NCBI GenBank assembly: GCA_903825245.1
Contig: CAIJZX010000014.1
Coordinates: forward strand, 1,655-65,654
DNA from: Candidatus Kerfeldbacteria bacterium
GTDB lineage: Bacteria; Patescibacteriota; Patescibacteriia; SBBC01; CAIJZX01
DNA: 64,000 bases
Direction: 5' to 3'
The translations under genes were made by a program, and so were the position numbers. How positions within the stretch are numbered: the first letter of the stretch is position 1; each line of letters begins with the position of its first letter. Of this stretch, positions 8,836-43,800 are shown piece by piece. The notes beneath the pieces are model-generated. The model saw nothing but the letters and a program-made list of their open reading frames with translations. It was not told the DNA's origin and ran no database searches.

Positions 8836-8905
8836 GGGTCAACTTCATCGCGGCTTGCATATTTAGTCGAAAAAACGTAGTATCTCGTAGTTGGTAAATC
8901 AATTT

Positions 8906-8992
8906 GGGCACGTGGCGGAATTGGCATACGCGCTAGCTTCAGGAGCTAGTGGTCGCAAGACCATGAGGGTTCAACTCCCTCCGTGCCCACCA
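8906..8992 (+). tRNA. tRNA-Leu (anticodon CAG), 87 nt including the encoded CCA
   Basis: Manual fold: acceptor GGGCACG/CGTGCCC, anticodon stem CTAGC/GCTAG with loop TTCAGGA (anticodon CAG), a long variable arm GGTCGCAAGACC, T arm GAGGG-TTCAACT-CCCTC, discriminator A and CCA. It is followed by the hairpin CCTGCCT-ACCAGC-AGGCAGG at 9010-9029. Confidence 0.85.
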
Positions 8993-27293: not shown

Positions 27294-27335
27294 GGCCCCC
27301 TCCTCAAGTGAGGAGGGGTAAGGGGAGGTGAAAAA
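27294..27335. repeat. GA-rich palindromic element GGCCCCCTCCTC-AAGT-GAGGAGGGGT-AAGGGGAGGTG
   Basis: Same family as the copy inside uvrC (5646-5680) and the extended copy at 32708-32803. This one is intergenic, between convergent genes. Confidence 0.7.
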
Positions 27336-28695: not shown

Positions 28696-28830
28696 GCTCC
28701 CACAACGACGTGCACCCACAAACAGTGGGCGCTCCCAAATGGGACCCATGCGTCAAAACCTTTAGCCCCAAGTATTCGAGGGGCCTATGAGGCGGGTTCC
28801 AAACCCGCTTATTCATTATTGTCCAATCCC

Positions 28831-29337
28831 ATGCAACAGCATTACGACGTCCTCTATATCATCCCCGGCACAAAAGCCGAAGACGAGGTTCCAGCCTTGG
28901 TTGAAAAAGTACATGAACTCCTGAAGGCAAACGGCGCTACGATTGTCAAGCAAGATTTCTGGGGCAAGCGCAAACTGGCTTACGAAATCGATCATATCCG
29001 CTACGGTTACTACGATGCCGTCGAATTCGATATGGAATCGACCACGTTGAATATCCTCGAACAAGCGCTCCGACTCAGTCCAATCGTCCTCCGCTCGCAA
29101 ATCACTCGTCGTAAAGTTTTGACGCCGGAACAAATAGCGGCCAATGCTGAAATCCACGAACGTATCGCCGCTAAACGCGAAGTTGCGAAAGAAAAAGAAG
29201 CGGCTGCGATTATGACCAAGCCTGATGCTAAACCGATTGAGCCAGATGTCGCTCCGGCACCGCAAGCCCCGGTTGAGACGAAGCAACTCGACGAAAAGAT
29301 CGAGGAAATTCTCGGATCTGACAAGGTCGATTTCTAA
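28831..29337 (+). CDS. rpsF: 30S ribosomal protein S6 with an acidic/Lys-rich C-terminal extension
   Basis: MQQHYDVLYIIPG...WGKRKLAYEIDHIRYGYY is the S6 fold signature. The longest ORF starts 12 nt earlier, at 28819. Confidence 0.9.
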   Translation: MQQHYDVLYIIPGTKAEDEVPALVEKVHELLKANGATIVKQDFWGKRKLAYEIDHIRYGYYDAVEFDMESTTLNILEQALRLSPIVLRSQITRRKVLTPEQIAANAEIHERIAAKREVAKEKEAAAIMTKPDAKPIEPDVAPAPQAPVETKQLDEKIEEILGSDKVDF

Positions 29338-29369
29338 TCCTACATATTTTATCATCTTATTCCACGCCT

Positions 29370-29819
29370 ATGGGATTCAGCCTTAATCGCGCCACTATCC
29401 TCGGGAACGTCACTCGCGATCCTGAGACACGTACCACCACCAGCGGTCAGTCCGTCGTTTCCTTTAGTGTCGCCACGTCGCGACGTTGGAAGGATCAAAC
29501 CTCGGGGGAACTCAAGGAAGCCACTGAATTCCACAATTGCGTTGGCTGGGGCAAGCTCGCCCAAACCATCGGCACCTACGTCCACAAAGGAAGCAAGGTT
29601 TATCTTGAAGGACGCATTCAAACTCGTTCGTGGGATGATCCGACCGGCGCGAAGAAGTACCGCACGGAAATTGTGGCTGAAAGCTTGATCCTCCTCGATA
29701 AGAAAGGTGACAACCCAGTCGTTGGCGCGCCAGCAAGTGCTCCAGCCATCGCCACTGATACCGCTCAACCAGCGGCTCCAACCGAAGAAGAAATTAATAT
29801 TGAAGATATTCCGTTTTAA
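29370..29819 (+). CDS. ssb: Single-stranded DNA-binding protein
   Basis: An OB-fold N-terminus (LNRATILGNVTRDPETRTTTSGQSVVSFSVA), a Gly/Pro-rich linker and an acidic tail ending in DIPF. Confidence 0.9.
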   Translation: MGFSLNRATILGNVTRDPETRTTTSGQSVVSFSVATSRRWKDQTSGELKEATEFHNCVGWGKLAQTIGTYVHKGSKVYLEGRIQTRSWDDPTGAKKYRTEIVAESLILLDKKGDNPVVGAPASAPAIATDTAQPAAPTEEEINIEDIPF

Positions 29820-29833
29820 TCCCGACCACCCTT

Positions 29834-30067
29834 ATGCGTCAGAAACAACAACACGCGCCTCTTAAAGAGCGCACCTGCTATCTCTGTGCGAATGCGATCG
29901 ACGAACTCGATTACAAAGATGTTCGCAGTCTGCAACGTTTTACCTCCGCTTCCGGAAAGATTTCCCCGCGTCGGAAGAGCGGTGCCTGTATGAAGCACCA
30001 GCGCATCATCGGCGAAGCGATCAAGCGCGCCCGCATCATGGCCTTGATGCCGTTCACCAACAGCTAA
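29834..30067 (+). CDS. rpsR: 30S ribosomal protein S18
   Basis: CYLCANAIDELDYKDVRSLQRFTSASGKISPRRKSG is the S18 signature. Confidence 0.9.
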   Translation: MRQKQQHAPLKERTCYLCANAIDELDYKDVRSLQRFTSASGKISPRRKSGACMKHQRIIGEAIKRARIMALMPFTNS

Positions 30068-30080
30068 AGCAGATACAGCT

Positions 30081-30644
30081 ATGATGGACATGAACGATAT
30101 TCGAGTTGGAACACTCGTCAAAATTGATAACGCGCCGTACGTTTGTTTGTGGTCGGATTTCATGCGCACCGCACAGCGTAAACCGGTTCGACGAACGAAA
30201 CTGAAGAATCTCATTACCGGCGGCGTGCTCGAACAAACCTTCAAGCATGGCGATAAGATTGAAGAAGCTGATGTTGAGCGGACGAAAGCCAGCTTCCTCT
30301 ACGCCGATGATCAGGGCGCGCACTTCATGGACAACACGTCGTATGAACAAGTGACCGTGCCGAAAGAAATGGTTGAGGAACAACTCCACTTTATGAAAGA
30401 CGGCAACGAATACACCGTCGTCAATTTTGAAGGCAAGCCGATTACGATTGAACTGCCGAAGAAAGTAGAATTCAAAGTCACCGATACCTCCGACGTTGTC
30501 CGCGGTGACACCACCGGTGCCGTCCTCAAAGATGCTACGATCGAAACCGGTTACGTCATGAAAGTTCCGCAGTTCGTGAAGACGGGTGATGTCATTCGCA
30601 TCAACACGGAAACCGAAGAATATACGGAACGCGTAACGGAATAA
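30081..30644 (+). CDS. efp: Elongation factor P
   Basis: A KOW-like N-terminus (IRVGTLVKIDNAPYVCLW...KPVRRTKLKNLITG) and two OB domains, 187 aa. Confidence 0.9.
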   Translation: MMDMNDIRVGTLVKIDNAPYVCLWSDFMRTAQRKPVRRTKLKNLITGGVLEQTFKHGDKIEEADVERTKASFLYADDQGAHFMDNTSYEQVTVPKEMVEEQLHFMKDGNEYTVVNFEGKPITIELPKKVEFKVTDTSDVVRGDTTGAVLKDATIETGYVMKVPQFVKTGDVIRINTETEEYTERVTE

Positions 30645-30655
30645 ATTTTCACACA

Positions 30656-30700
30656 CCACCAAGGTACAGCGGTGGGCTTTCCAGCCCACCGCTTTCAGTA
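30656..30700 (+). terminator. Hairpin AGCGGTGGGC-TTTCC-AGCCCACCGCT after efp, with a weak U-tract
   Basis: A 10-bp perfect stem followed by TTCAGT rather than a full T-run. Confidence 0.4.
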
Positions 30701-30720
30701 ACGTTAAAATCAAAAAATCA

Positions 30721-30749
30721 TTGACAAAAACGTGTTTTTCTGATATACT
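30721..30749 (+). promoter_or_regulatory. Consensus promoter TTGACA-N17-TATACT
   Basis: Hexamers at 30721-30726 and 30744-30749. It drives the hypothetical gene at 30797. Confidence 0.5.
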
Positions 30750-30796
30750 AGTATTGTTCTTAAATTAATTTGAGGAATTCACTAACCGCAAACCAT

Positions 30797-31420
30797 ATGC
30801 CAGAAGGAGCCCCAAGTCACGAAGGAGAGGGTGTTGTTGTACACGATGAGACATACCGCGTAACTGATGTCGCCAAAGCTCGCACTATGGCCGCGGATGA
30901 ACGCACTCCAGAAGGTCGCGTAATACATGAGGGTTCGAATCGGGCTCGTAGCGATGCGGAGGTATTTAAGAAATCTGCCGAAGAACGCAAACGTTTATTT
31001 CCAGATACAGAATTTATTACCGATCATAGCGAAAAAGCAAACGAGCTCACAGCCCAAGCGGAAAACATCGAACACAGTAATGGTTTACATTACGAAGCCG
31101 ATAAAATTGTTGATGCGGTCGGTGAAAACGTTTCTTATGAAGCAATTTTTACGTACGAACAACGCGCCGCTGAAGCTCAACGGGATGTTGAGGCACTCCA
31201 ACGAGTATACGAAGGATTATTCGATAAGCCGGGACGTGAACGAGATGCACAGTCACTCAAGCGCTCTCTCAGCGAGACCCAAGACCAGGAACGTATTTAT
31301 CACTACGCCTTTTCTAAACTTCGCGGTAAAGGGATGGAGCAACTTGCGGGCGGGCATAAATTTTGGGATGAGTACAACGATTTTAAAGCAAAGAAGCTGG
31401 CAACGGTTGAAAAGAAATAA
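30797..31420 (+). CDS. Hypothetical acidic protein (ATG at 30797; the longest ORF begins at a TTG at 30770)
   Basis: A 207-aa ORF downstream of a consensus promoter. No conserved motif was recognised. After its stop the hairpin GCAGCGAGCCTAGACTCGCTGC is followed by TTTT, a likely bidirectional terminator shared with recA. Confidence 0.5.
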   Translation: MPEGAPSHEGEGVVVHDETYRVTDVAKARTMAADERTPEGRVIHEGSNRARSDAEVFKKSAEERKRLFPDTEFITDHSEKANELTAQAENIEHSNGLHYEADKIVDAVGENVSYEAIFTYEQRAAEAQRDVEALQRVYEGLFDKPGRERDAQSLKRSLSETQDQERIYHYAFSKLRGKGMEQLAGGHKFWDEYNDFKAKKLATVEKK

Positions 31421-31475: not shown

Positions 31476-32567
31476 TTATTCCGCCTTCTCTTCCGCCGGT
31501 TCGTCAGCAACCGCCGCCGGTTTTGTTCCAGCATCATCTTCCGCTTGGCGGTCTTTCGCTACTTCAAGAACCTTCTTCCGAAGCTCATCGATAATTTTTG
31601 GATTATCTTGCAAATATTGCTTCGAGGCTTCGCGGCCAACGCCGAATTTAATTTCACCGTAGGAAACGGTGTTACCGGATTTCGTCAGCACACCGTAGAG
31701 CAACGCCGTGTCGAGTACATCGGATACCAGTGAAATCCCTTGGTTGTACATGATGTCGAACTCAGCTACGCGGAACGGAGCGGCGACTTTGTTCTTCACA
31801 ATTTTCGCCTTGGTGCGGTTGCCGATAATCTTATCACCGAGTTTCAACTGACCAATGCGGCGAACTTCGATACGAACCGAGCAGTAGAATTTCAAGGCTG
31901 TCCCACCAGTCGTCGTTTCCGGATTACCGAAGAAGACGCCGATCTTCATGCGCGTCTGGTTGATGAAGATAACGATGGTTTTCGTCTTTGACACGATGGC
32001 CGTGAGCTTACGCAATGCTTGCGACATCAATCGCGCTTGCAAGCCCATATGTGAATCGCCCATCTCACCTTCAATTTCCGCTTTTGGCGTTAAGGCCGCG
32101 ACCGAGTCAATGACGACGACGTCAACCGCATTCGAGCGCACCAGTGTTTCCACGATTTCTAACGCTTGTTCACCTGAGTCCGGTTGTGAGATTAAGAGTT
32201 CATCAACATTCACGCCAATCTTTCGCGCGTAGCTTGGATCAAGAGCGTGTTCGGCATCAACGAAGGCGGCGGTTCCGCCGGCGCGCTGTACTTCCGCCAC
32301 AATGTGTTGTGCCAACGTGGTTTTTCCCGACGCTTCCGGTCCGAAGATTTCAATCACCCGACCGCGCGGCACGCCGCCCACGCCGAGCGCTAAATCTAAC
32401 GACAAACATCCCGTGGAGACGACATCGACGTCCATCGCCCGGGCTTCACTAAATTTCATAATCGATCCTTCACCGAAACGCTCTCGGATCTGATCGACCG
32501 CCGTTTGCGCGGCCGCATTTTTTATCTTACCGGCGTCAGCACCGGCGCTTTTTTGGCTCTTGGCCAT
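31476..32567 (-). CDS. recA: Recombinase A
   Basis: Walker [14 protein letters not shown], RecA loops L1 and L2, and an acidic C-terminus. 363 aa. Confidence 0.93.
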
Positions 32568-32707
32568 ATGGTTATTCCTTTCTTACCGCACGTCTTCCCA
32601 CAAATCGGGGACAGTCGGGGTTTAATGAATTAATGATACCCGAAGAATAACCGAATGTCAACAAAAGATATCCACAAGCTTTTTATGTCGTAATAATGCG
32701 GTATTTC

Positions 32708-32803
32708 GGCCCTCTCCTTGGATAAGGGGAGGTGAAGGAGGGGTCACAAAACCACCATTTTTTCACCACCTCCCCTTCACCCCTCCTCGGCTGAGGAGGG
32801 GGC
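32708..32803. repeat. Extended (~95-bp) composite GA-rich palindrome of the same family as 5646-5680 and 27294-27335
   Basis: GGCCCTCTCC..AAGGGGAGGTGAAGGAGGGGTCAC-AAAACCACCATTTTTT-CACCACCTCCCCTTCACCCCTCCTC-GGCT-GAGGAGGGGGCC. It contains the hairpin CCCCTCCTC/GAGGAGGGG and lies immediately upstream of the island promoter. Confidence 0.65.
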
Positions 32804-32814
32804 CGGATTGGGTC

Positions 32815-32843
32815 TTGACAAAATCCCCTACTTGTCCTATACT
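32815..32843 (+). promoter_or_regulatory. Consensus promoter TTGACA-N17-TATACT at the head of the small-gene island
   Basis: Hexamers at 32815-32820 and 32838-32843. It is the only consensus-quality + strand promoter found between here and the terminator at 37727-37750. Confidence 0.5.
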
Positions 32844-32907
32844 GTCCAGTTCTTTAAATCCATAAATTACTTCTACTTCGCCCACGTGAGCAGACGCGGC
32901 GCGAACG

Positions 32908-32965
32908 ACGGGTGCGTTGTCTTGATTACTCTGCTCATGTAGTCACTACGACGCACCCGTTTTTC
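32908..32965 (+). promoter_or_regulatory. Attenuator-like leader hairpin (ACGGGTGCG ...35-nt loop... CGCACCCGT followed by TTTTT), with a possible competing pairing TGAGCAGA/TCTGCTCA
   Basis: A 9-bp stem plus T5, lying between the promoter and the first island ORF. TGAGCAGA at 32887-32894 can pair with TCTGCTCA at 32930-32937, which sits inside the terminator loop. Confidence 0.4.
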
Positions 32966-32995
32966 GTTCAGACTTCATTTACCATAGGAGGATGT

Positions 32996-33205
32996 GTGAC
33001 TGCCCTAGAACGTGACACACGTGTGTCCATCATCATCGGAATCGCTGCCCTCTGTAGCATTACCTTGGTGGTTGGCGGAACTATGGCCAAATGTATCGGT
33101 ATGGCCACCAAGTGCGCAGGCGTGGTGATTGGTGGCGGCATCATCGCTGCCGTTTGTGTCGCCGCCTGGGGCTTGTACAGGTCTTATCAGACCACACGAA
33201 AGTAG
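32996..33205 (+). CDS. Island ORF A: small two-TM, Gly-rich membrane peptide (GTG start, 69 aa; longest ORF from 32912)
   Basis: AGGAGG 4 nt before the GTG. Product ...IIIGIAALCSITLVVGGTMAKCIGMATKCAGVVIGGGIIAAVCVAAWGLYRSYQTTRK, with glycine-zipper-like GxxxG motifs. Confidence 0.45.
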   Translation: MTALERDTRVSIIIGIAALCSITLVVGGTMAKCIGMATKCAGVVIGGGIIAAVCVAAWGLYRSYQTTRK

Positions 33206-33364
33206 CTCGTACCATCTACACAGATGTAAAACGTGAGGGAGGGAGAACAGCCACGTTTTCCTCCCACTCTCACATGAATTGATCACTACTGGTCACATCA
33301 TGCGAGAGGTCTGTACCTTGACTCTCAATAAAGAAAATACTGCGTTCCCGTTTTTCGTTCAACG
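33203..33364. repeat. Type-1 inter-ORF unit, copy 1 (~160 bp), starting at the ORF A stop codon
   Basis: TAGCTCGTACCATC...GTGAGGGAGGGAG..CCTCCCACTCTCAC-ATGAATTGATCACTACTGGTCACATCATGCGAGAGGTCTGTACCTTGACTCTCAATAAAGAAAATACTGCGTTCCCGTTTTTCGTTCAACG. The last ~100 nt are identical to copy 3. Confidence 0.75.
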
Positions 33365-33386
33365 TACTTCAACAAAGGGACACCCA

Positions 33387-33557
33387 ATGCTTCGTTCATT
33401 GGCACTGCTGGCTTGGATATGTCTCGCGTCATTAATCCATGACTGCGAAAGATACGTCTGGCGCTGCAAGGTGAAGAGACTTCGGAAGACACTCAATGGT
33501 CGAAATCATGAGTTGGATGTCTTCTTGAAGAATCTCGAGGAATACTACGCGATGTAG
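33387..33557 (+). CDS. Island ORF B: 56-aa protein with a hydrophobic N-terminus (MLRSLALLAWICLASLIHDCERYVWRCKVKRLRK...)
   Basis: The ATG is preceded by AAAGGGA. The longest ORF (33279) begins inside the repeat, and copy 2 of that repeat carries an in-frame stop, so the upstream part is not coding. Confidence 0.45.
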   Translation: MLRSLALLAWICLASLIHDCERYVWRCKVKRLRKTLNGRNHELDVFLKNLEEYYAM

Positions 33558-33714
33558 TTCGTACCGTCGCCACACGACGTAAACAAGTGAGGGAGGGAGA
33601 ACAGCCACGTTTTCCTCCCACTCTCACATGATTTGGTCACCGTTGGTCACATCATGCGAGAGGTCTGTACCTTGACTCTCAATGAAGAAAATAGCACTCC
33701 CGTTTTTCGTTCAA
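33555..33714. repeat. Type-1 inter-ORF unit, copy 2 (a diverged copy)
   Basis: It starts at the ORF B stop (TAGTTCGTACCGTC...) and shows ~85 % identity to copy 1, including the GTGAGGGAGGGAG hairpin and the CCCGTTTTTCGTTCAACG tail. Confidence 0.75.
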
Positions 33715-33748
33715 CGCTGTGAACCCATACAGCCCTTGGAGGATCATC

Positions 33749-33949
33749 ATGGTTCCTCATCCGCTCAAGCTCAAGCGTGATGAACAGTACCTGCAGAGCA
33801 GTATTGCTCTTCTGATCACGGTTGTCCCCATCGTCGTCATCGTGAGGTATGGCTGGCATGGTTATGCCGTATTATACCTGATCGCCCTCATCATCTTCGC
33901 GATCTACAAGTTCGTCAGGGGCATGATGATCAAGGTCCCGAAGAGCTAG
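33749..33949 (+). CDS. Island ORF C: 66-aa two-TM membrane peptide
   Basis: GGAGGA 5 nt before the ATG. MVPHPLKLKRDEQYLQSSIALLITVVPIVVIVRYGWHGYAVLYLIALIIFAIYKFVRGMMIKVPKS. Confidence 0.5.
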   Translation: MVPHPLKLKRDEQYLQSSIALLITVVPIVVIVRYGWHGYAVLYLIALIIFAIYKFVRGMMIKVPKS

Positions 33950-34120
33950 CCCGCACCATCGCCTCGCGATGAAATTTGTGAGGGAGGATTGAGGAGGGTT
34001 TACCTTTTCTCTTCTCCCTCACCCCTCACATGAATTGATCACTACTGGTCACATCATGCGAGAGGTCTGTACCTTGACTCTCAATAAAGAAAATACTGCG
34101 TTCCCGTTTTTCGTTCCACG
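33947..34120. repeat. Type-1 inter-ORF unit, copy 3
   Basis: It starts at the ORF C stop (TAGCCCGCACCATC...). Its 5' hairpin is the variant GTGAGGGAGGATTGAGGAGGG..CTCCCTCAC, and its 3' ~100 nt are identical to copy 1. Confidence 0.75.
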
Positions 34121-34137
34121 CCAATTCGGAGGTCATC

Positions 34138-34308
34138 ATGAGGATGGGCACGTTCAGCACGATCGAGCGAATTATGGAGGACAACGGACTACCGGTTCCA
34201 AGCGGGCGAGGAAATGAGAAGCTCAACGAAATCGCAAGAATCGTCGAGACTCACGAAATGCCTGAGGATGTCCGACAGCGTCTTCGTAACTTGCTCGCCC
34301 TTCGCTGA
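34138..34308 (+). CDS. Island ORF D: 56-aa hydrophilic protein (MRMGTFSTIERIMEDNGLPVPSGRGNEKLNEIARIVETHEMPEDVRQRLRNLLALR)
   Basis: GGAGG 5 nt before the ATG. It is absent from the ORF track only because it is under 60 aa. It ends just before a shortened leader (CAAGTTTTCGTTCAC). Confidence 0.4.
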   Translation: MRMGTFSTIERIMEDNGLPVPSGRGNEKLNEIARIVETHEMPEDVRQRLRNLLALR

Positions 34309-34366
34309 CTCAACGACAAGCAACGCACAAGTTTTCGTTCACACTTCTCGCTACGGAGGTTACACC

Positions 34367-34615
34367 ATGTCGTCCAATCCGATGACGTCGGAGCAGAAGG
34401 TTACGCAACTCCTGGTAGCGCTCGTGTTGACCATTCTTGGTCTGCCGATCGCCGCGCTTGGTGGTTACGGCATCTACTTTGCCTTCACCAATACCGGTGC
34501 CGATCCCGGCCTCGGATCAGCGGCCATTCTGGTCTTCTGCGTCGGCATCGGCGCTATCGGCATCGCCATCAAGCTGACCAACGATGCGCGTCGGGCGAAG
34601 ACGAGTCCGATCTAG
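34367..34615 (+). CDS. Island ORF E: 82-aa two-TM, Gly-rich membrane peptide
   Basis: GGAGG 7 nt before the ATG. MSSNPMTSEQKVTQLLVALVLTILGLPIAALGGYGIYFAFTNTGADPGLGSAAILVFCVGIGAIGIAIKLTNDARRAKTSPI. Confidence 0.5.
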   Translation: MSSNPMTSEQKVTQLLVALVLTILGLPIAALGGYGIYFAFTNTGADPGLGSAAILVFCVGIGAIGIAIKLTNDARRAKTSPI

Positions 34616-34649
34616 ATGCACCTTGAGATAAGGGGGACCCGCGAGTTCC

Positions 34650-34704
34650 CTTCTCACTCGACTTGAGAACTAATCCAATAGTTGTCCGGTCAAGTGAGAA
34701 AACC
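34650..34704 (+). repeat. Type-2 leader hairpin, copy 1 (TCTCACTCGAC ...loop... GTCAAGTGAGAAAACC)
   Basis: The stem CACTCGAC/GTCAAGTG contains one G-U pair and is followed by GAGAAAA. The motif family recurs upstream of ORFs at 35251, 36142 and 36738. Confidence 0.65.
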
Positions 34705-34745
34705 AAAGTAACATCGTTCCGTCACAATCAAATCTGGAGGATACA

Positions 34746-35105
34746 ATGACCAATCTGGCTTTGGCTGTCACTGTTATTGGCGCCGCCGCTGTCATCGTGG
34801 TTGTCTGGCGCTTCATGCGTCACAAGTTCCGCAACGACGAGATCGCTGTTCCGGACGAACCCACGCCGCCGCAACCGGTCTATAACGATAGGCCCGTGAT
34901 CGAGGCTGAAGAAATCGGTCACGGCGTTTACGAGATCGGGTTCTACGGACGCTTCGATGGGGTCCTGATGGACGTCTTTCCGGAATCCCTCGCCGCCTTC
35001 GTCAAGCAGCACCCCGAGTTGCGGATCATCAGCGTCTGCACCGGACGTGAATCCAGTTACAATGGCTTCACTTCCAGTATGGTTGTGTTGACCGAACTGC
35101 GTTAA
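34746..35105 (+). CDS. Island ORF F: 119-aa protein with an N-terminal TM anchor and a small soluble domain
   Basis: GGAGGA 4 nt before the ATG. MTNLALAVTVIGAAAVIVVVWRFMRHKF... followed by a ~85-aa domain. Confidence 0.55.
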   Translation: MTNLALAVTVIGAAAVIVVVWRFMRHKFRNDEIAVPDEPTPPQPVYNDRPVIEAEEIGHGVYEIGFYGRFDGVLMDVFPESLAAFVKQHPELRIISVCTGRESSYNGFTSSMVVLTELR

Positions 35106-35165
35106 GCACCTTCAACTCGAGCCACCCGGCTCATTGAGAGGATGGATAGCCACATCGTCCTCCTT

Positions 35166-35208
35166 TCACTCGAGTATTGCAAGCAATTGAAATATTCAAG
35201 CGAAACAC
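35166..35208 (+). repeat. Type-2 leader hairpin, copy 2 (a diverged copy: TCACTCGAG...TTCAAGCGAAACAC)
   Basis: It shares TCACTCGAG and the CAAG(T/C)GA(G/A)AAAC tail. A further partial CAACTCGAG...CTCATTGAG lies at 35111-35140. Confidence 0.5.
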
Positions 35209-35250
35209 AGAAAATAGAAACTGCTCTTCACAACACTAGGAGGTTCAAGG

Positions 35251-35484
35251 ATGGACATTCCTGCGTTTCACAGCGTTACGGCTCACAAAGAACATGAATG
35301 TTGTGAATGCCACGAGCGGATTCTTCCGAAGGAGAGGTGCTGGATTCAGTACTGGCCGGATGCTCGTCAGCGTCGGTGGAAGAATGTTTTTACCTGCTCT
35401 CACTGTCGTCCGCAACACGAAGTACCGGCACAGCCTACGCCGGCACCTCAGCCGATCAAGTCTCAGCAGTTGTTGCTTCTGTAG
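35251..35484 (+). CDS. Island ORF G: Cys-rich 77-aa protein (HECCECHERILPKERCW...CSHCRPQH), a zinc-ribbon-like product
   Basis: TAGGAGG 7 nt before the ATG. Two CxxC-like clusters lie about 30 residues apart, followed by a Pro/Gln-rich tail. Confidence 0.55.
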   Translation: MDIPAFHSVTAHKEHECCECHERILPKERCWIQYWPDARQRRWKNVFTCSHCRPQHEVPAQPTPAPQPIKSQQLLLL

Positions 35485-35508
35485 CCCACCTCAACAAGGA
35501 GCTCCAAA

Positions 35509-35967
35509 ATGGAATTCGTCGGGAAGAAGTTCGTGTTGTGGCCATACATGCCGGACATGCCCAGCGTGCAGTATCGCGACCAGCATGGCATTCTCCATTG
35601 GGGTCGACGCATCGAGAGAGAAATCGTCGTCACAATCGAAAATGAATCGACAAATGCGTCAGGACACGGCACCGACCTCGTCGCTCGTGACAAGGACGGC
35701 ATGCTGTATCAGTCGACCTGGGACGAGAGCAATTCCCGTCCCTACCGCGTCTGGTGGTACGTCGAGGGCGGCCGTGTGATCCTGCTCACGAATGCGATCA
35801 ATCTCTACAACGAACGTCCGACCGCATTCATCCGTCCCGATGGCACCCGCGCTGTCCCGGCAATCGCCACGGTCTGCGCCAAACATGACGAGGTATGCTT
35901 GTCGAATGGCGAATGCCCCATGTGCATGATGGAGAAGCATCGCGCCAAGCTGCAAGGTTCCGTCTAG
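35509..35967 (+). CDS. Island ORF H: hypothetical 152-aa protein with a C-terminal Cys cluster (CAKHDEVCLSNGECPMC)
   Basis: AAGGAG 7 nt before the ATG. It lies 24 nt after ORF G and is probably co-transcribed with it. The competing ORFs at 35294..35779 and 35307..35645 lack an RBS. Confidence 0.55.
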   Translation: MEFVGKKFVLWPYMPDMPSVQYRDQHGILHWGRRIEREIVVTIENESTNASGHGTDLVARDKDGMLYQSTWDESNSRPYRVWWYVEGGRVILLTNAINLYNERPTAFIRPDGTRAVPAIATVCAKHDEVCLSNGECPMCMMEKHRAKLQGSV

Positions 35968-36037
35968 ACCTCCTAGCTGTTCTCGCCTGCCGCGCAATTC
36001 TACGTTCACTTCGGTGGATATGGATTGCGCGGCGGGC

Positions 36038-36084
36038 TCTCACTCGAGCGTTTCACAACCGTGGAACGTTCAAGTGAGAAAACG
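36038..36084 (+). repeat. Type-2 leader hairpin, copy 3 (CTCTCACTCGAGCGTT...AACGTTCAAGTGAGAAAACG)
   Basis: A 14-nt stem with one mismatch and one G-U pair, followed by GTCACAAT as in copy 1. Confidence 0.65.
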
Positions 36085-36141
36085 AAAAGAAATACTGTTC
36101 TGTCACAATTCATCGCTTTACGCGAAGAGAGGAGCAGCATA

Positions 36142-36570
36142 ATGAGTTTGCTTGCGGCTTGTTTGTTGATCGCGGCCGTAGTGTTCCTGGTGGTAGCCAT
36201 TTTTCAGGATCGGGCGCGGTTTCGTGAGTTGGAAAAAAGGAGGAATCTGGAGCGGTGCGAATCACGGCACGCGCAAAACTTCCTCGAGCTGGAGATCAAG
36301 ATCCTCCGATATGTTCATGGCCACAAGCGCCTGCCCAAGAACATGGACCTTGTGCGCGGCATGAATATGAACCCGGATTATACCAACCCCTTCAGCGGAA
36401 ATCCGGCCAATGTCAATGACGTGACCGGGCTGGAGGAGATGCGAATCATCCTGCCCCATGATCTGACGTTCGAGATCTTGGCTCCGGAAGGTCCCGGATC
36501 GGAACGATGTGTCATCGCCCTGAATGATGCAAACGGCCAAGTGATGTGTCGGAGGACCATTTACGCGTAA
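36142..36570 (+). CDS. Island ORF: 142-aa protein with an N-terminal signal/anchor (MSLLAACLLIAAVVFLVVAIF) and a soluble domain
   Basis: GAGGAG 8 nt before the ATG. The longest ORF (36025) would begin inside the leader hairpin. Confidence 0.5.
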   Translation: MSLLAACLLIAAVVFLVVAIFQDRARFRELEKRRNLERCESRHAQNFLELEIKILRYVHGHKRLPKNMDLVRGMNMNPDYTNPFSGNPANVNDVTGLEEMRIILPHDLTFEILAPEGPGSERCVIALNDANGQVMCRRTIYA

Positions 36571-36636
36571 ACCGAGATCACAACCAACTGGTTTTCGAGA
36601 GATTTTCCCTGGCTCACGCCAAAAATAATCTCTCAG

Positions 36637-36697
36637 TTTCACTCGAGCGTTTCAGCGCCGCCTGCTCGCGGAACTGGAGCGCTCAAGTGAGAAAAGA
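36637..36697 (+). repeat. Type-2 leader hairpin, copy 4 (TTTCACTCGAGCG ...33-nt loop... CGCTCAAGTGAGAAAAG)
   Basis: The stem CACTCGAGCG/CGCTCAAGTG has one G-U pair, and the GAGAAAA tail is the same as in the other copies. Confidence 0.65.
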
Positions 36698-36737
36698 AAA
36701 TTGTAAAAACCGTTCATTCCAACTGAAGGAGAGTGCT

Positions 36738-37421
36738 ATGTCCACTTGTGCGCAGGAGGAATTCCTAGCCACACACGTCACATGTCGACCATATCGAGTG
36801 TCTGATCGGCGGGAAATTCGTCAGCTGATGTGTAATACCGCAATTATGGGCAATCCGATCGACCTGCAATGCACCGATCGCGAGCTCATTGCCGATTTGT
36901 TCACCCGGTACTACACCGACGTCACGCCGGGATGGATCTGGGTGCTCGAATTTCGCGGACGCCTCGTCGGTTACCTGATGGGTTGTCCGGACACGAAGCT
37001 GTTCCAGAAGTATATGGACGACGTCTACCCCAGTATCCTGCTCGGCGTCCTGCGTCGCGGATCGCTCTTCCGTTCCGGTTCAGCCGGCTTTCTGTGGCGG
37101 ACAATCGGAGACATTCTCGGAAAGGTACTTCGTCGCGAACCGCTCGAGTATTACAATCCGGCGTTTCCGGCTCACGCTCACCTGAATGTTTTGCCCGAAG
37201 GTCGTTCATCTACGTACCAGCTCGCTGCCCGATTTCTGAAGCAGCTCAGACAGCATAATGTGCCTGGGATCATGGTTGAAATCTGGGCCGAGAATGCCCA
37301 CATGGCCACCCTGCTGGAACACCATCGTTTTCAGAAGGTCCATTCCACCACCATGCCCGGCATGCGTCAGTCGAACGGTTATCCGTACCATGTCGCCACC
37401 TACGTCCGATCGCTGTTGTAG
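36738..37421 (+). CDS. Island ORF: GNAT-family N-acetyltransferase-like protein (227 aa)
   Basis: AAGGAG 7 nt before the ATG. A GNAT-like central and C-terminal region (GRLVGYLMG...NVLPEGRSSTYQLAARFLKQLRQHNVPGIMVEIWAENAHMATLLEHHRFQKV). The assignment is by motif resemblance only. Confidence 0.45.
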   Translation: MSTCAQEEFLATHVTCRPYRVSDRREIRQLMCNTAIMGNPIDLQCTDRELIADLFTRYYTDVTPGWIWVLEFRGRLVGYLMGCPDTKLFQKYMDDVYPSILLGVLRRGSLFRSGSAGFLWRTIGDILGKVLRREPLEYYNPAFPAHAHLNVLPEGRSSTYQLAARFLKQLRQHNVPGIMVEIWAENAHMATLLEHHRFQKVHSTTMPGMRQSNGYPYHVATYVRSLL

Positions 37422-37448
37422 CCTCACCCCTCACACAAGGAGCCGCAC

Positions 37449-37730
37449 GTGATCCAGTGGATGCTGTTGCTGGTAATTCTGGCTATGTTCTTCTCGCTCA
37501 TCAACAGCCGCGACAAAGGGTTGGACCAGATCATTTCCGGCTGGGTCATCTGGACTGGCTGGCTGTGGATTCTCATTCCCGGCGCCATGTTCGGCAACGA
37601 GATTCTCCGTTCGATCGGTGCACCGAATATCCGGATCTTCCAGTCCGGGTCGTGGCAGCCGCTCGGTCCGATGGTTCTCGGCGCGATCCTGCTCTTTTCC
37701 TGGCATCGCCGCCAGGCCAAACACAACTAA
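37449..37730 (+). CDS. Island ORF: 93-aa multi-TM membrane protein (GTG start)
   Basis: AAGGAG 6 nt before the GTG. Three hydrophobic helices (MIQWMLLLVILAMFFSLI..., WVIWTGWLWILIPGAMF, LGPMVLGAILLFSW). It is followed immediately by a strong terminator. Confidence 0.55.
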   Translation: MIQWMLLLVILAMFFSLINSRDKGLDQIISGWVIWTGWLWILIPGAMFGNEILRSIGAPNIRIFQSGSWQPLGPMVLGAILLFSWHRRQAKHN

Positions 37731-37750
37731 CCTTCGGGTTAGTTTTTTTT
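37727..37750 (+). terminator. Rho-independent terminator CTAACC-TTCG-GGTTAG followed by T8 at the end of the island; it overlaps the stop of the convergent RodZ-like gene
   Basis: A 6-bp stem with a TTCG tetraloop and eight T residues on the + strand. Confidence 0.6.
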
Positions 37751-38411
37751 ATTCCACGAGCACTTGCCGTATCACAACTCGAGCTGAACTGTGTTTCTTT
37801 ATTGCAGAAATTTTCAATGTATTAAGTCCGGTGTGTAGGTCAATCGTCAAAGTAAATGAACCAGCTGTCGTTTGCACTGCTTCGTCGTTTATTGTAACGG
37901 TCGCATTAGGGTCGGTTTTTCCGGTAATAGTCATTGTTGTTTGCTTCGTAGCAATATCGCGACTTGGTTGTGTGATGAGCAATTGTGGTGGAAGAAAGTT
38001 TTGTATTACTTGCAAGCCGATATAGGCGAACACCGCAACCAGTATTATTCCAGCCGCAATAAAACGAATGTATTTCCGTCCCCAAGAAAAATCGGTATTC
38101 GCACGAGGTGTGAGTAGTGGCCGTGAGGCTGGTCCAGTTTTTGTGACCACGGCATATTCTTGCTCAAAAATGCCGATCGCCATCGCCACATCGGTTTCTA
38201 ATAATTCAGCATAACGACGAACGAATTGTTTGGCATATACCTGGCCAGGCAAATCACGATACCGCGAGGATTCAATCGCCACTAAATACTTCGGCGAGAT
38301 GTGTAATCGCGAAGCAACATCCTCAATCGTCAATCGGCTTTCGTTTCGAAGTGTTTGGAGGCGATCACCGAGCGTCGCCCCATCAACTAGCGGCCGCTTC
38401 GAGAAGGTCAT
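37749..38411 (-). CDS. RodZ-like XRE-family helix-turn-helix membrane protein
   Basis: An N-terminal HTH (LGDRLQTLRNESRLTIEDVASRLHISPKYLVAIE), a single TM helix (IRFIAAGIILVAVFAYIGL) and a C-terminal beta-rich domain. It overlaps the ftsK stop by 4 nt. Confidence 0.7.
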   Translation of the reverse strand: MTFSKRPLVDGATLGDRLQTLRNESRLTIEDVASRLHISPKYLVAIESSRYRDLPGQVYAKQFVRRYAELLETDVAMAIGIFEQEYAVVTKTGPASRPLLTPRANTDFSWGRKYIRFIAAGIILVAVFAYIGLQVIQNFLPPQLLITQPSRDIATKQTTMTITGKTDPNATVTINDEAVQTTAGSFTLTIDLHTGLNTLKISAIKKHSSARVVIRQVLVE

Positions 38412-40804: not shown

Positions 40805-43800
40805 TTAATTCACCCAGAAATGCACCACTGGACTCAGCGTCGTATTTCCCGCATAGTCGTATGCTTCTACTTGTAGCGTATGCGATGAGCCCGGGGCAAA
40901 GGCGTTCGTATAAGTTAACTGTAATGTATAAGGTGCGCCAACGTATGTGAAGGGACAGTAGTGAATACTTGGTAACGTACAATCGAAGTAGAACCGCGAA
41001 CTCGCAACACCAACGTTATCTGTGATATTTGCCTTGAATACCGATGGATACGCCGTCGGATTCCCATCCTTGGGAGAGATAATGCTCACTACGGGTGGCG
41101 TTGTGTCTGTTCCACCAAACACCGTAAATGAAACTGAGGCCGAACTTGTTTTTAATCCAGAATTACTTACCGCCACGGCATATCCGGATAGATTAGTCGG
41201 GGTAAGGTAATGTGATACATCAAAAGCCGCAGCATATGGCGCTGTCGTATCGGTTGCGAACGGCGTTGTTTGTCCTTGAAGGTAGAATTCAACTTGCTTA
41301 ATGCCGTCGGGTACACTCGCTGAAGCGGAGAAGTTAAGTACGCCAGCGTAGGGTTGTCCAGCCAGGGGCGATGTAAGGGCAACGGTAGGTGGCGGAAGTG
41401 GGGCCGCGGTGATGTTAACAGTAAGCGACTGACTTTGTTGTCCTCCATCAGTAGCCCAAATCGTTGCGGACTTTGTCTTCCCAAGATCTGCGGCGGTCGG
41501 CGTCCACGTCAAGGTAGCGCTCGTCGAATTAAAGGTTACCCCGGATGGTAAAGCGGTTGCCACATATGTCACGGCAGTTCCATCCGGATCTGTTGCGTGG
41601 ACTTGAACAGAAAAAGGTATGCCGACGTATGCCGTCTGACTTGGTGTTGTATCGAAAACCGGTGGCGGGTTTGCCGATGGCGTGGTGAAGTTCATCACTT
41701 TCATATTTTGACACCAGTAGTTTGCTGTGCCATTACCGTAGCCTGTCCATATAGTCCCGTACATATTATACGTATATGTCGTGTTGGGAGCGACGAGAAA
41801 TGTCACCACCGGCGTCATACCAGAAAACGTTATGGCTGGATTGAGAAGTTGATCGCTGGAAGTTGTACATTTGCCATCGCTTGTACAAGAGCGGACACGA
41901 AAATGTTTTAATTTACCATTAACCGCCGAGTTGTTAATTTCAACTTGATGACCCTTCTCTTGATAAGATGCATGCTGTGTATAGCCATAATTTGTATCTA
42001 GACCATATTCAACTGTTGTATCTGAATTGATGTCGGTCGACCAATTCACCCGACCTTCATAACTAAGACCTGGCGCGGCAGGCATCCATGAAATACCCGA
42101 TATTACTGGAGCACCGAGAGTTGAGGATTCTGACTGAGAGTACCAAGGCAGTAAAACTGCATATCCCGTCGTTTGTTTCGCATCGCAAGACCATGCAACC
42201 GTCGCTTTGTCCCCTGTGAAGAATACTCGTGGAGCTGGCGGGCTTTGCATGCCGGGTGTAGTAATTTCCAAAATTGTACTTTGTGTGCACAATTGATTCT
42301 GAGCAGGTATTGTTGTGTTACAGGACATTATTCTAGTCAAATAGGTTGTACTCGGACTTACGGGAAGTATCATGGAATGGTGTGTTACCGCTCCGGCAGG
42401 ATCTGGGTAAGTATAAGTGCCCATCCCCGGAACCGTTAAATAACTAGTACCAACAGACGGAATATCTGTATCCCAACTCACTTGCACCGCATATGGCCAT
42501 TGGTCCAAAATAAGTTTTACGGCATAATTTGATAGTGCTGGAGGCGGAGGAAGCGCTGGGGTGGTTATTATTTGGTCACTCGTTGAGGAACAGGTTTTCG
42601 GACTACCAGTCGTACATGAGGTTAATTTATAGTGGTACGTGGTGCCGGGTTCTGTCGCGAAGTCCCACCTATGCGACGTCAGCGACTCACTAACATAATA
42701 CGTTGTGCCATACTCGGTTGTGGTTCCGAGGTCAATTTGTTTGTCGGCTGGCCTACTCGTTGTCCAAGTGACCCCTGAATAAGTAAGTGTTGTGTATGAG
42801 GTAATTGCAGAAATTGCCAAGGCTGACTGATTATTAAATGCGATTGGGATTGCCTTGGTGCTAGTGAGACCACCGGGGTCTACAACCATAAACTCCGGAG
42901 CATAAATACCGCTTGCTTGTGTCGCATCTGGCGTCCAGGAAAATGTTTTGTTCGTTGCATTATAGGTCGAGCCAACAGGTTTACTGCTTTCCACAACACT
43001 AATGGTTAAGTCCGAGGCAGCAGTGTTTGCGTCTGAAGCGGTAACGGTAAACGTCGCGGTACTGCCATAGTTTATTCGTGGCGGATCGACATGATTAATA
43101 TATGGCACGCCAAATTGGAGAACCGTAATAATCGGACTTGTGTTATCGGTTTCAAACGGTTCCGAATAACGGTTATCAGGGTCCATCACAATTTTTACAT
43201 GAGTTGGCATGGTTATTCCGGAAGGAACGGTAACAGTATCGACGAGTGAACCACCAGAACCGCCATTCAAGTAATACACAAATCCGTTGTACACCGTGGT
43301 GTTGGTATCTGTGTTGATAATACGATATGGCACATTCTTCGCGCTCGTCCAACCAGCATTATCGACCCACAAATCCAAACCGAGTTTATTGCTCCCTTTA
43401 TCCACCACGGGCTGGCTTCCCGCCATCGCAGCAAATGATGTAAACGAGAAATCTGGTCGACGGTCGAAGGCTTGTTTCACTGCTGCTTGGGCATTGACTA
43501 GGCCGTAGCCGGAATATTGGTTCCACGTTCCGGGGAAGTTTTGCAGCACACCGCTCTCGTCAGTCACATCATGCATTGTTGTGGCGGTTGTTTCCAAAAT
43601 TTGCTTTATATCGTATAGACTTAACGCCGGGTTGACGGATTTTATGAGACCAACGATACCGCTGACAATTGGCGCTGCAAAGCTTGTTCCTTCATCATAG
43701 AAAAAGTATTGATTGCTCCCAGTACCACTCAAGTTTTGCACCGCTCCGCAAGTATCATGATAATAGATTGGCTCAATACACTTTGTTACATCGTCAAGAA

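Follow-up and report, generated by a model that had tools for sequence, protein, structure and literature searches.

A 64,000-nt stretch of a Candidatus Kerfeldbacteria genome (contig CAIJZX010000014.1; hereafter "the window") contains, between positions 32815 and 32995, a consensus promoter and a structured RNA leader that, in our judgment, is probably a transcription attenuator located at the entrance of a variable island of small genes next to recA. This premise is built on the sequence elements themselves, on their conservation in related genomes, on the covariation of the two leader hairpins (P1 and P2), on the preservation of an alternative helix and on the computed fold energies; from these properties we infer the start of transcription, its actual termination, the switching and the nature of the trigger. 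The elements concerned, the last of which comprises the ribosome-binding site (RBS) and the first open reading frame (ORF) of the island, are the following:

32815–32843, + strand: sigma-70-type promoter at the island entry (TTGACA at 32815–32820, 17-nt spacer, TATACT at 32838–32843; 11/12 consensus matches)
32849–32859, + strand: conserved 5′ block GTTCTTTAAAT, at or beside the predicted transcription start and found only together with the P1/P2 leader
32877–32905, + strand: hairpin P1, 10 bp, with the invariant hexaloop GAGCAG (32888–32893); proposed anti-antiterminator
32888–32897, + strand: 5′ strand of the alternative helix, GAGCAGACGC, with the partners CUGCUC (32931–32936) and GCGU (32914–32917)
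32907–32961, + strand: hairpin P2, the predicted terminator stem, 21 bp (14-bp lower stem and 7-bp upper stem)
32960–32970, + strand: T5 tract (32960–32964) followed by CGTTCA, together the tail TTTTTCGTTCA, lying within the 15-mer CCCGTTTTTCGTTCA (32956–32970)
32986–33205, + strand: RBS (AGGAGG, 32986–32991) and first island ORF (GTG at 32996; 69 aa)

Both the promoter and the RBS with its GTG start are present as described in an initial annotation of this DNA, made from the sequence alone. Scanning the whole window for TTGACA-N16-18-TATAAT with at least 11 of the 12 positions matching yields five sites, against 0.77 expected from Markov-simulated sequence, all five with a spacer of 17 nt and one of them being the divergent recA promoter (32661–32633). 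Since sites of this kind are so much in excess and so uniformly spaced, consensus sigma-70 promoters appear to be in use by the organism, and a chance origin of the island-entry promoter is unlikely. TTGAC(A/T)-N17-TAnnnT is found in matching position and orientation in six relatives (L081, L090, L091, L092, L093 and L097). The sequence GTTCTTTA directly after the -10 element is invariant in all four genomes having the leader (the window, L081, L091 and L092) and is missing downstream of the promoter in L090, L093 and L097, none of which has P1 and P2. Transcription would start at approximately position 32850.

The fold computed for the whole leader, a check that the initial annotation had recommended, has an energy of -51.3 kcal/mol (z = -5.2 versus shuffles) and consists of two hairpins, P1 and P2. 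In the latter the lower stem pairs 32907–32920 with 32948–32961 and the loop, UCUGCUCAU (32930–32938), holds the invariant CUGCUC. By itself P2 reaches -32.6 kcal/mol in the window, within a four-genome range of -24.6 to -32.6 kcal/mol, and the U tract that follows consists of five residues in the window, six in L081 and L092 and four in L091. A stable, G+C-containing stem-loop with an abutting U-rich tract is what characterizes the sequence of an intrinsic terminator, and termination at the U tract of P2 is predicted. The putative terminator (32907–32964) lies between the promoter (32815–32843) and the first RBS (32986), an order also kept in L081, L091 and L092. A terminator-like hairpin with a T5 tract had already been recognized in the initial annotation, where the 9-bp stem described represents only the core of the 21-bp stem of P2. 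The two complementary octamers reported there, TGAGCAGA (32887–32894) and TCTGCTCA (32930–32937), are likewise both present, the chance of such an 8-mer match being ~0.002, but the 35 nt given as the distance from the stem is the gap between the octamers, the first of which lies 12 nt upstream of the stem. P1 with its GAGCAG hexaloop, the further copies of CCCGTTTTTCGTTCA and the dispersed repeat inside the palindrome preceding the promoter had been overlooked.

Homologues of the leader occupy the corresponding locus, with unchanged orientation, in L081 (9113–9256), L091 (9191–9036, minus strand) and L092 (8833–8681, minus strand), whose RecA proteins are 86–88% identical to that of the window and whose flanking spacers have diverged. 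In the four genomes the module has the order TTGAC(A/T)-N17-TAT(A/G)(A/C)T, GTTCTTTA, a variable linker, P1 (GAGCAG), P2 (CUGCUC at the apex), four to six U residues and the RBS of the first ORF, which is found 20–45 nt beyond the terminator with no promoter in between. The first ORF is unrelated among all four genomes, that of L092 resembling ORF5 of the window. In a structural alignment of the four sequences, built by hand with N as gap placeholder, 99% of the cells belonging to the 24 pairs of P1 and of the P2 lower stem are paired and 9 of these pairs display compensatory double changes, such as CGC/GCG → GUG/CAC in P1 and GGGU/ACCC → AAAC/GUUU in P2. Taken separately, P1 (-8.7 to -12.7 kcal/mol in the four genomes) has double changes at 4 of its 10 pairs, with 97.5% of its cells paired, and the P2 lower stem at 5 of 14 pairs, with 100% of its cells paired. 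None of 500 shuffles matched the pairing values of the leader and all slid controls remained far lower. As to its distribution, an nhmmer profile of the leader run against the window and the loci of the relatives compared here recovers the four known copies only; a scan of metagenome contigs with GCCCAYGTGAGCAGRCGCGGYG gave five matches, all in unrelated high-GC sequence, and a scan of viral contigs with GTGAGCAGRCGYSG-N20-50-CTGCTC gave 27, none of which an nhmmer profile confirmed.

The dimensions of P2 also lend themselves to another explanation, namely that its duplex of 21–26 bp constitutes an RNase III-type processing site or a 5′ stabilizer of the mRNA, the T tract being incidental. In fact, P2 (-25 to -33 kcal/mol) is far longer and more stable than the terminator found at the end of the island (-8.7 kcal/mol). 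However, in each of the four genomes the tract of four to six U directly abuts the stem, and neither the invariant complementary loops nor the conserved P1 would be accounted for by an element of this type, which we hold to be highly improbable.

Attenuation, on the other hand, calls for a second structure incompatible with the terminator, and this is what the two loops can provide. Neither GAGCAG nor CUGCUC varies among the four leaders, despite changes in the surrounding stems, and an alternative helix is formed by GAGCAG:CUGCUC plus ACGC:G(C/U)GU, the second part of which overlaps the 5′ arm of the terminator. All 10 pairs of this helix, mutually exclusive with the terminator stem, are kept in all four genomes, six being invariant and three having wobble-compatible single changes. 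The RNAalifold consensus obtained from an unbiased MAFFT alignment is the alternative helix and not the terminator. Prefix folding of the four leaders indicates in each case that the alternative helix is the minimum-energy fold for transcripts ending shortly after CUGCUC, and that the terminator replaces it once the terminator 3′ arm is present. Furthermore, since in L091, L081 and L092 the apical stem of P2 takes up part of CUGCUC, the invariance of this motif is better explained by the alternative helix than by display in an open loop. The attenuation layout proposed in the initial annotation thus finds support in the promoter, hairpins, T tract and GAGCAG/CUGCUC motifs conserved in four genomes, in the covarying stems and in the alternative helix that all of them retain. 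A different use of the same motifs, as a pair of DNA operators forming a GAGCAG inverted repeat, was considered and judged unlikely, the two motifs being separated by 43 or 48 nt and hence unphased.

The mechanism that can be envisaged is one in which the RNA starts at ~32850 from the consensus sigma-70 promoter and P1 forms first, sequestering ACGC and acting as an anti-antiterminator; P2 would then terminate transcription, P1 together with the long P2 running into the U tract representing the OFF fold, i.e., an intrinsic terminator. Because the OFF fold is far more stable, the default outcome would be termination after ~115 nt. In the ON fold GAGCAGACGC, comprising the loop and 3′ strand of P1, would pair with GCGU of the terminator 5′ arm and with the apical CUGCUC to yield an antiterminator: by capturing GCGU and CUGCUC while these are emerging, GAGCAGACGC would delay completion of the terminator stem and the polymerase would read into the island. 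Read-through into the 11 island ORFs would require that this transient antiterminator be held until the polymerase has passed the U tract. If the alternative fold is much the weaker of the two, what could favor it? Something must do so, and the invariance of the GAGCAG and CUGCUC sequences suggests a trans-acting, sequence-specific recognition; the antiterminator would most likely be held by a trans-acting factor that recognizes these two motifs.

Invariant loops are also found in antisense and kissing RNAs, and it can be asked whether the region is instead a small-RNA gene, with a two-hairpin RNA of ~115 nt always ending at the U tract and acting in trans through complementary loops engaged in target recognition or dimerization. 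The strong promoter, the very stable terminator hairpin and the U tract would suit such a gene, and the island genes could be expressed from leak-through or from weak promoters of their own, the recurrent AATACT-like sequences upstream of later ORFs serving as weak -10 elements. Nevertheless, the RBS of the first ORF always follows at the short, promoter-free distance mentioned above, the loops are complementary to each other and not to any identified target, and in L091, L081 and L092 part of CUGCUC lies within the stem. This burial, together with the 1-nt linker that separates the 10-bp and 21-bp hairpins and would make an intramolecular kiss sterically unlikely, is also the reason why a kissing-loop model of the leader was judged unlikely. 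A small-RNA gene is, on balance, an unlikely explanation.

The trigger could alternatively be a metabolite or an ion, the leader being a riboswitch with a terminator-embedded aptamer, similar to that of the hydroxymethylpyrimidine pyrophosphate (HMP-PP) riboswitch or thiS motif, in which the ligand would stabilize the alternative fold and turn the island ON. A conserved terminator loop and a competing consensus structure were the very signs that revealed the HMP-PP riboswitch (PMC6478431), and in the present case too the alternative helix is conserved. Yet the leader matches no Rfam family. The search that the initial annotation had called for found only two tRNAs when the whole window was scanned at the gathering score, and with a limit of E ≤ 10 the segment 32560–33010 gave nothing on 32850–32995, the sub-threshold matches to miRNA hairpins being confined to the palindrome. 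No conserved aptamer-type internal loop or junction, and no multi-helix aptamer, is visible in the four sequences, and an association with one pathway is not found, the four first ORFs being mutually unrelated and devoid of Pfam matches. Since the downstream genes differ in each genome and have no recognizable metabolic function, no ligand logic is apparent. Membership of a riboswitch family, which the initial annotation had entertained, is not supported by these results, and we consider a riboswitch very unlikely.

Other known types of leader fit no better. Ribosome-mediated attenuation finds neither an ATG nor a Shine–Dalgarno sequence within 32850–32905, and the GTG-initiated frames of the four leaders differ in both length and reading frame. 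The P1 hexaloop is GAGCAG and there is no second short hexaloop hairpin, unlike what is expected of an ANTAR dual-hexaloop leader, in which two short hairpins lie side by side, their hexaloops having A and G at positions 1 and 4, respectively, and the terminator overlaps the second of them. The features of T-box leaders are likewise missing from this one.

Several considerations weigh against an attenuator. The comparison includes four sequences only, and an alignment fitted by hand to the stems inflates the pairing statistics. The alternative fold is 15–22 kcal/mol less stable than the full-length terminator fold, so that switching must be kinetic or factor-driven, and because there is no variation at the six core pairs of the alternative helix, covariation offers no proof of this helix, whose changes are all single-sided wobble changes, with no double change among them. 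A sensor is not apparent, since neither a conserved leader peptide nor a junction resembling that of an aptamer is seen in the four leaders and Rfam gives no match, and the invariant loops are the candidates for this role. P2 is longer than usual for a terminator, and we know of no account of how the RNA polymerase of the candidate phyla radiation (CPR) terminates. Internal promoters of a non-consensus type may exist within the island. Finally, the leader is dispensable, since L090, the nearest relative (RecA 92% identical), L093 and L097 retain the promoter with other 5′ untranslated regions (UTRs) and without the leader. In L090 (~6230–6215, minus strand) the -10 element is directly followed by GTGCGTTGTC-GATT, which matches 32912–32925 of the window in the terminator 5′ arm (chance ~0.03); this match suggests a deletion of P1 and of the putative switch, and the segment may be a remnant of the leader.

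The genes that an attenuator would control form an array lying in the following context:

32568–37748, + strand: island of 5.2 kb with 11 small ORFs on the same strand (32996–37730)
31476–32567, minus strand: recA, the upstream flank of the island
37749–38411, minus strand: rodZ-like gene (HTH_25), the downstream flank of the island, followed by ftsK (minus strand)
within 28816–30713, + strand: genes for S6, SSB, S18 and EFP
37725–37752, + strand: canonical intrinsic terminator at the end of the island (8-bp stem and T8; -8.7 kcal/mol)

The scan for promoters and terminators detected no other strong promoter on the + strand, and the site at 37725 is the only other canonical terminator-like site outside ORFs on this strand. 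With a single strong promoter at one end and a single further terminator-like site at the other, the island may plausibly be a single gated transcription unit.

The RecA sequence of the window has no identical entry on record, and its best matches among species-representative genomes are found in metagenome-assembled genomes of Patescibacteria (70–76% identity). In many distant CPR relatives ftsK, rodZ and recA follow one another directly in the same direction, without any homologue of the 11 array ORFs in these genomes, from which it follows that 32568–37748 is an inserted island. The closer relatives (RecA 85–92% identical) share the order rpoB-rpoC-ftsK-rodZ-[slot]-recA-efp-S18-ssb-S6, which is identical in the window, where rpoB and rpoC were identified by synteny only. 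Their slots contain from 0 to 11 small ORFs, mostly unrelated:

L103: empty, a 382-nt gap between adjacent rodZ and recA
L097: one small ORF
L090: two ORFs
L081: three called ORFs
L093: four or more ORFs
L092: about ten ORFs
L091: eleven ORFs

Only ORF5, ORF10 and ORF11 of the window have homologues in the islands of these relatives, ORF10 having three among 5.8 billion proteins. The product of ORF1, whose hydrophobic stretches are consistent with two transmembrane segments, has no Pfam, PHROGs or PADLOC match; ORFs 1–10 have no credible match in these three libraries and ORF11 none in Pfam, the only library tested for it. A phage or plasmid origin was rejected at the DNA level, the island DNA matching no phage or plasmid record.

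The 15-mer in which the predicted terminator ends is not confined to the leader. Copies of it are found at the next three gene junctions, the leader copy and the first two of these being identical, and in two families of repeats the island displays further structured elements between its genes:

33347–33361, + strand: second CCCGTTTTTCGTTCA copy, exact, preceding ORF2 and located at the 3′ end of the first family-A repeat, with no abutting stem
33699–33713, + strand: third CCCGTTTTTCGTTCA copy, exact, upstream of ORF3
34103–34117, + strand: fourth CCCGTTTTTCGTTCA copy, with one mismatch, upstream of ORF4
33228–33364, 33582–33716 and 33984–34120: family-A repeats, 112–135 nt, 79–93% identical, each before an unrelated small ORF (ORFs 2–4)
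34653–34699, 35165–35205, 36039–36079 and 36638–36692: family-B hairpins of the window
L081 10423; L090 6208 (minus); L091 8634, 7687, 6938 and 6310 (minus); L093 1700 (minus); L097 9801 (minus): family-B hairpins of relatives

The copies preceding ORFs 2–4 are not terminators, since no stem abuts the T tract there. In L096 (~8890–8940, + strand) TTTTCGTTCAAAC, i.e., the same tail as that of the CCCGTTTTTCGTTCA motif, comes after an unrelated hairpin, CCGGAGAAC...GTTCTCCGG, and the tail is therefore common to otherwise different elements of the clade. A family-A repeat comprises a GA-rich hairpin, a second hairpin CTCTCACATGA...TCATGCGAGAG, ACCTTGACTCTCAA and then AATACTGCGTTCCCGTTTTTCGTTCA, with the CCCGTTTTTCGTTCA tail at its 3′ end; this repeat was not found in the related islands. 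Its TTGACT was rejected as part of a sigma-70 promoter, because the spacing in TTGACT-N12-AATACT is too short, and a long-range closing stem was also rejected, not being kept in unit 3. Family B, represented by 12 copies in six genomes and absent from Rfam, always lies upstream of the RBS of the next ORF. Its conserved base reads either CTCACTCGAG...CTCAAGTGAG or CTCTCTCGAG...CTCAAGAGAG; the eighth pair is always a C-A mismatch, the apex varies, the hairpin is followed by a run rich in A, and compensatory A/T swaps between genomes support the stem.

The recurrence of the tail, without a stem in front of it, at the next three junctions raises the question of whether the region is primarily a DNA element, its long imperfect palindrome and CCCGTTTTTCGTTCA tail forming an integron-like recombination or cassette-joining site, or an exchange hotspot of the type proposed for the promoter early stem-loop (PeSL) modules of phages, and its conservation resulting from recombination and not from regulation by RNA. 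The variable cassette content behind a conserved entry and the structured repeats between cassettes would be in keeping with such a function, as would the composite promoter/terminator repeats that mediate gene shuffling in T4-like phages (PMC4122927). However, no recombinase, integrase or transposase was found among the large ORFs tested across the window, the inverted GAGCAG copies have no conserved phasing, and the tail repeats are not seen at later junctions of the other islands. Moreover, the compensatory changes keep the pairing of a single strand, G-U wobbles included, and are compatible with an RNA read from the + strand. We regard a DNA-level role as distinctly unlikely. An integron proper was rejected, no intI-type recombinase being found among the large ORFs tested in the window and no attC cores being seen: the repeats, when read, consist of CTCACTCGAG...CTCAAGTGAG hairpins and of family-A units ending in CGTTCA, with no GTTRRRY/RYYYAAC cores.

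Immediately upstream of the promoter is the following feature:

32705–32807, + strand: GA-rich composite palindrome, located between the divergent promoters of recA and of the island (-60.6 kcal/mol, z = -3.8)

The initial annotation had seen in this palindrome a possible operator. The palindrome is indeed there, but it includes a dispersed hairpin, CCCCTCCTCGGCTGAGGAGGGG (32780–32801), resembling a repetitive extragenic palindrome (REP), whose core, CCCCTCCTC-N4-5-GAGGAGGGG, is present in three copies in the window (5649–5669, 27297–27318 and 32780–32801) versus none expected, and also in L081, L090, L094, L096 and L103, the latter having a copy despite having no island. The core of the palindrome appears to be a dispersed REP-like element and not a dedicated operator, and could possibly function as an insulator. 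In L081, L091 and L096 two REP-like copies flank a gene, located between recA and the island promoter, which from reading alone and without a family search we take to encode a DUF559-like endonuclease.

Some neighboring features are worth recording. The recA promoter and 5′ UTR (32572–32676, minus strand) have 77–89% DNA identity in all close relatives, whereas the neighboring non-coding DNA has diverged; the promoter, TTGACA-N17-TATCAT, has a TTCGG...TTCGG direct repeat in its spacer and is followed by a conserved CCCCGACTGTCCCCGATTTGTGGG 5′ UTR. Judging from its sequence, the stretch could serve as an operator or give rise to a structured recA leader. A second slot of variable content (30721–31420) separates efp from the 3′ end of recA; it is occupied in the window by an ORF of 216 aa (30770–31420) with no credible Pfam match and with an 11/12 consensus promoter of its own (30721), and in the relatives by different small ORFs or by none. 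Between ftsK and rpoC, 40805–45451 encodes an S8 subtilase of 1548 aa with Ig-like domains, whose gene has the only 12/12 consensus promoter of the window (45523, minus strand); in several close relatives (e.g., L094 and L097) ftsK comes after rpoC with no called gene in between.

What could be the significance of an attenuator in this position? Patescibacteria (CPR) are uncultured organisms with very small genomes, often dependent on other cells, and to our knowledge almost nothing is known of their gene regulation. If the attenuator is real, it would represent a new, structurally supported cis-regulatory RNA at the gate of a hypervariable accessory-gene slot beside recA. It would then become possible to test how strain-specific small membrane proteins, likely candidates for interactions with hosts or phages, are controlled and whether a conserved promoter-plus-switch platform with exchangeable cargo exists beyond integrons. 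Even if the leader proved to be no more than a common terminator with some leakage, gene flux in CPR could still be studied at the island with its junction repeats, a well-defined hotspot. A further step, which we advance only as a speculation and think unlikely, would be to regard promoter and switch as a fixed platform at the entrance of a CPR cassette system resembling integrons but devoid of an integrase and shuffled via the junction repeats and CCCGTTTTTCGTTCA, in which small orphan genes would be gained, lost and rearranged at the rodZ-recA slot and one RNA switch would gate whatever cargo is present.

Among known systems, the closest in design are the classical terminator/antiterminator/anti-antiterminator leaders, such as the expression platforms of riboswitches and the Bacillus trp, pyr and T-box leaders. 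These share with the present leader a promoter and, ahead of the first RBS, an intrinsic terminator whose 5′ arm can pair with a segment further upstream, itself sequestered by a first hairpin. Unlike the classical cases, no leader peptide, tRNA-binding element, protein-binding repeat or aptamer has been identified here, and the element keeps to one place on the chromosome, the entrance of a variable island, whatever the function of the genes that follow.

The HMP-PP (thiS motif) riboswitch, whose terminator-embedded aptamer was exposed by loop conservation and a competing structural model and which occurs exclusively with genes for thiamin precursors (PMC6478431), resembles the leader in that it looks like a plain strong terminator, in the unusual degree of conservation of its hairpin loop and in a further consensus structure by which the terminator is disrupted, the ON state being predicted for this second fold. 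It differs from it in sequence and structure, as deduced from the Rfam scan, whereas the leader has an additional upstream hairpin, P1, and is followed by unrelated orphan genes; since there is no consistent downstream function, a small ligand is not favored.

In an integron, the platform consists of the Pc promoter and attI, followed by attC-bounded cassettes. The island has in common with it one conserved entry promoter, a same-strand array of small, variable and mostly orphan ORFs with structured imperfect palindromes in between, and a short motif shared by the entry site and the following junctions. It departs from it in that the large ORFs tested in the window include no integrase, no R′/R″ cores are seen and the repeats lie upstream of each ORF; we know of no terminator switch at the entry of integrons, whereas the island has a putative one. 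In T4-like phages, PeSL motifs, i.e., repeated modules of stem-loop and promoter-like sequence, flank small orphan genes in hyperplastic regions and have been proposed as points of genetic exchange (PMC2839356, PMC4122927). Stem-loops and TTGACT are similarly repeated between the small ORFs of the island, which, unlike the phage regions, belongs to a bacterial chromosome with no match to phage or plasmid DNA and begins with an entry module bearing a conserved putative switch; its internal repeats have no promoter with sigma-70 spacing, the best -10-like hexamer being 12 nt from TTGACT. The element thus recalls both the Pc/attI platform of integrons and the PeSL modules of phages without having the defining features of either. 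The class of mechanism to which it would belong is well known; the RNA family is absent from Rfam and, as far as seen, confined to a narrow CPR clade, and it is unusual for such an element to go with the entrance to a slot of variable cassettes instead of with a family of genes.

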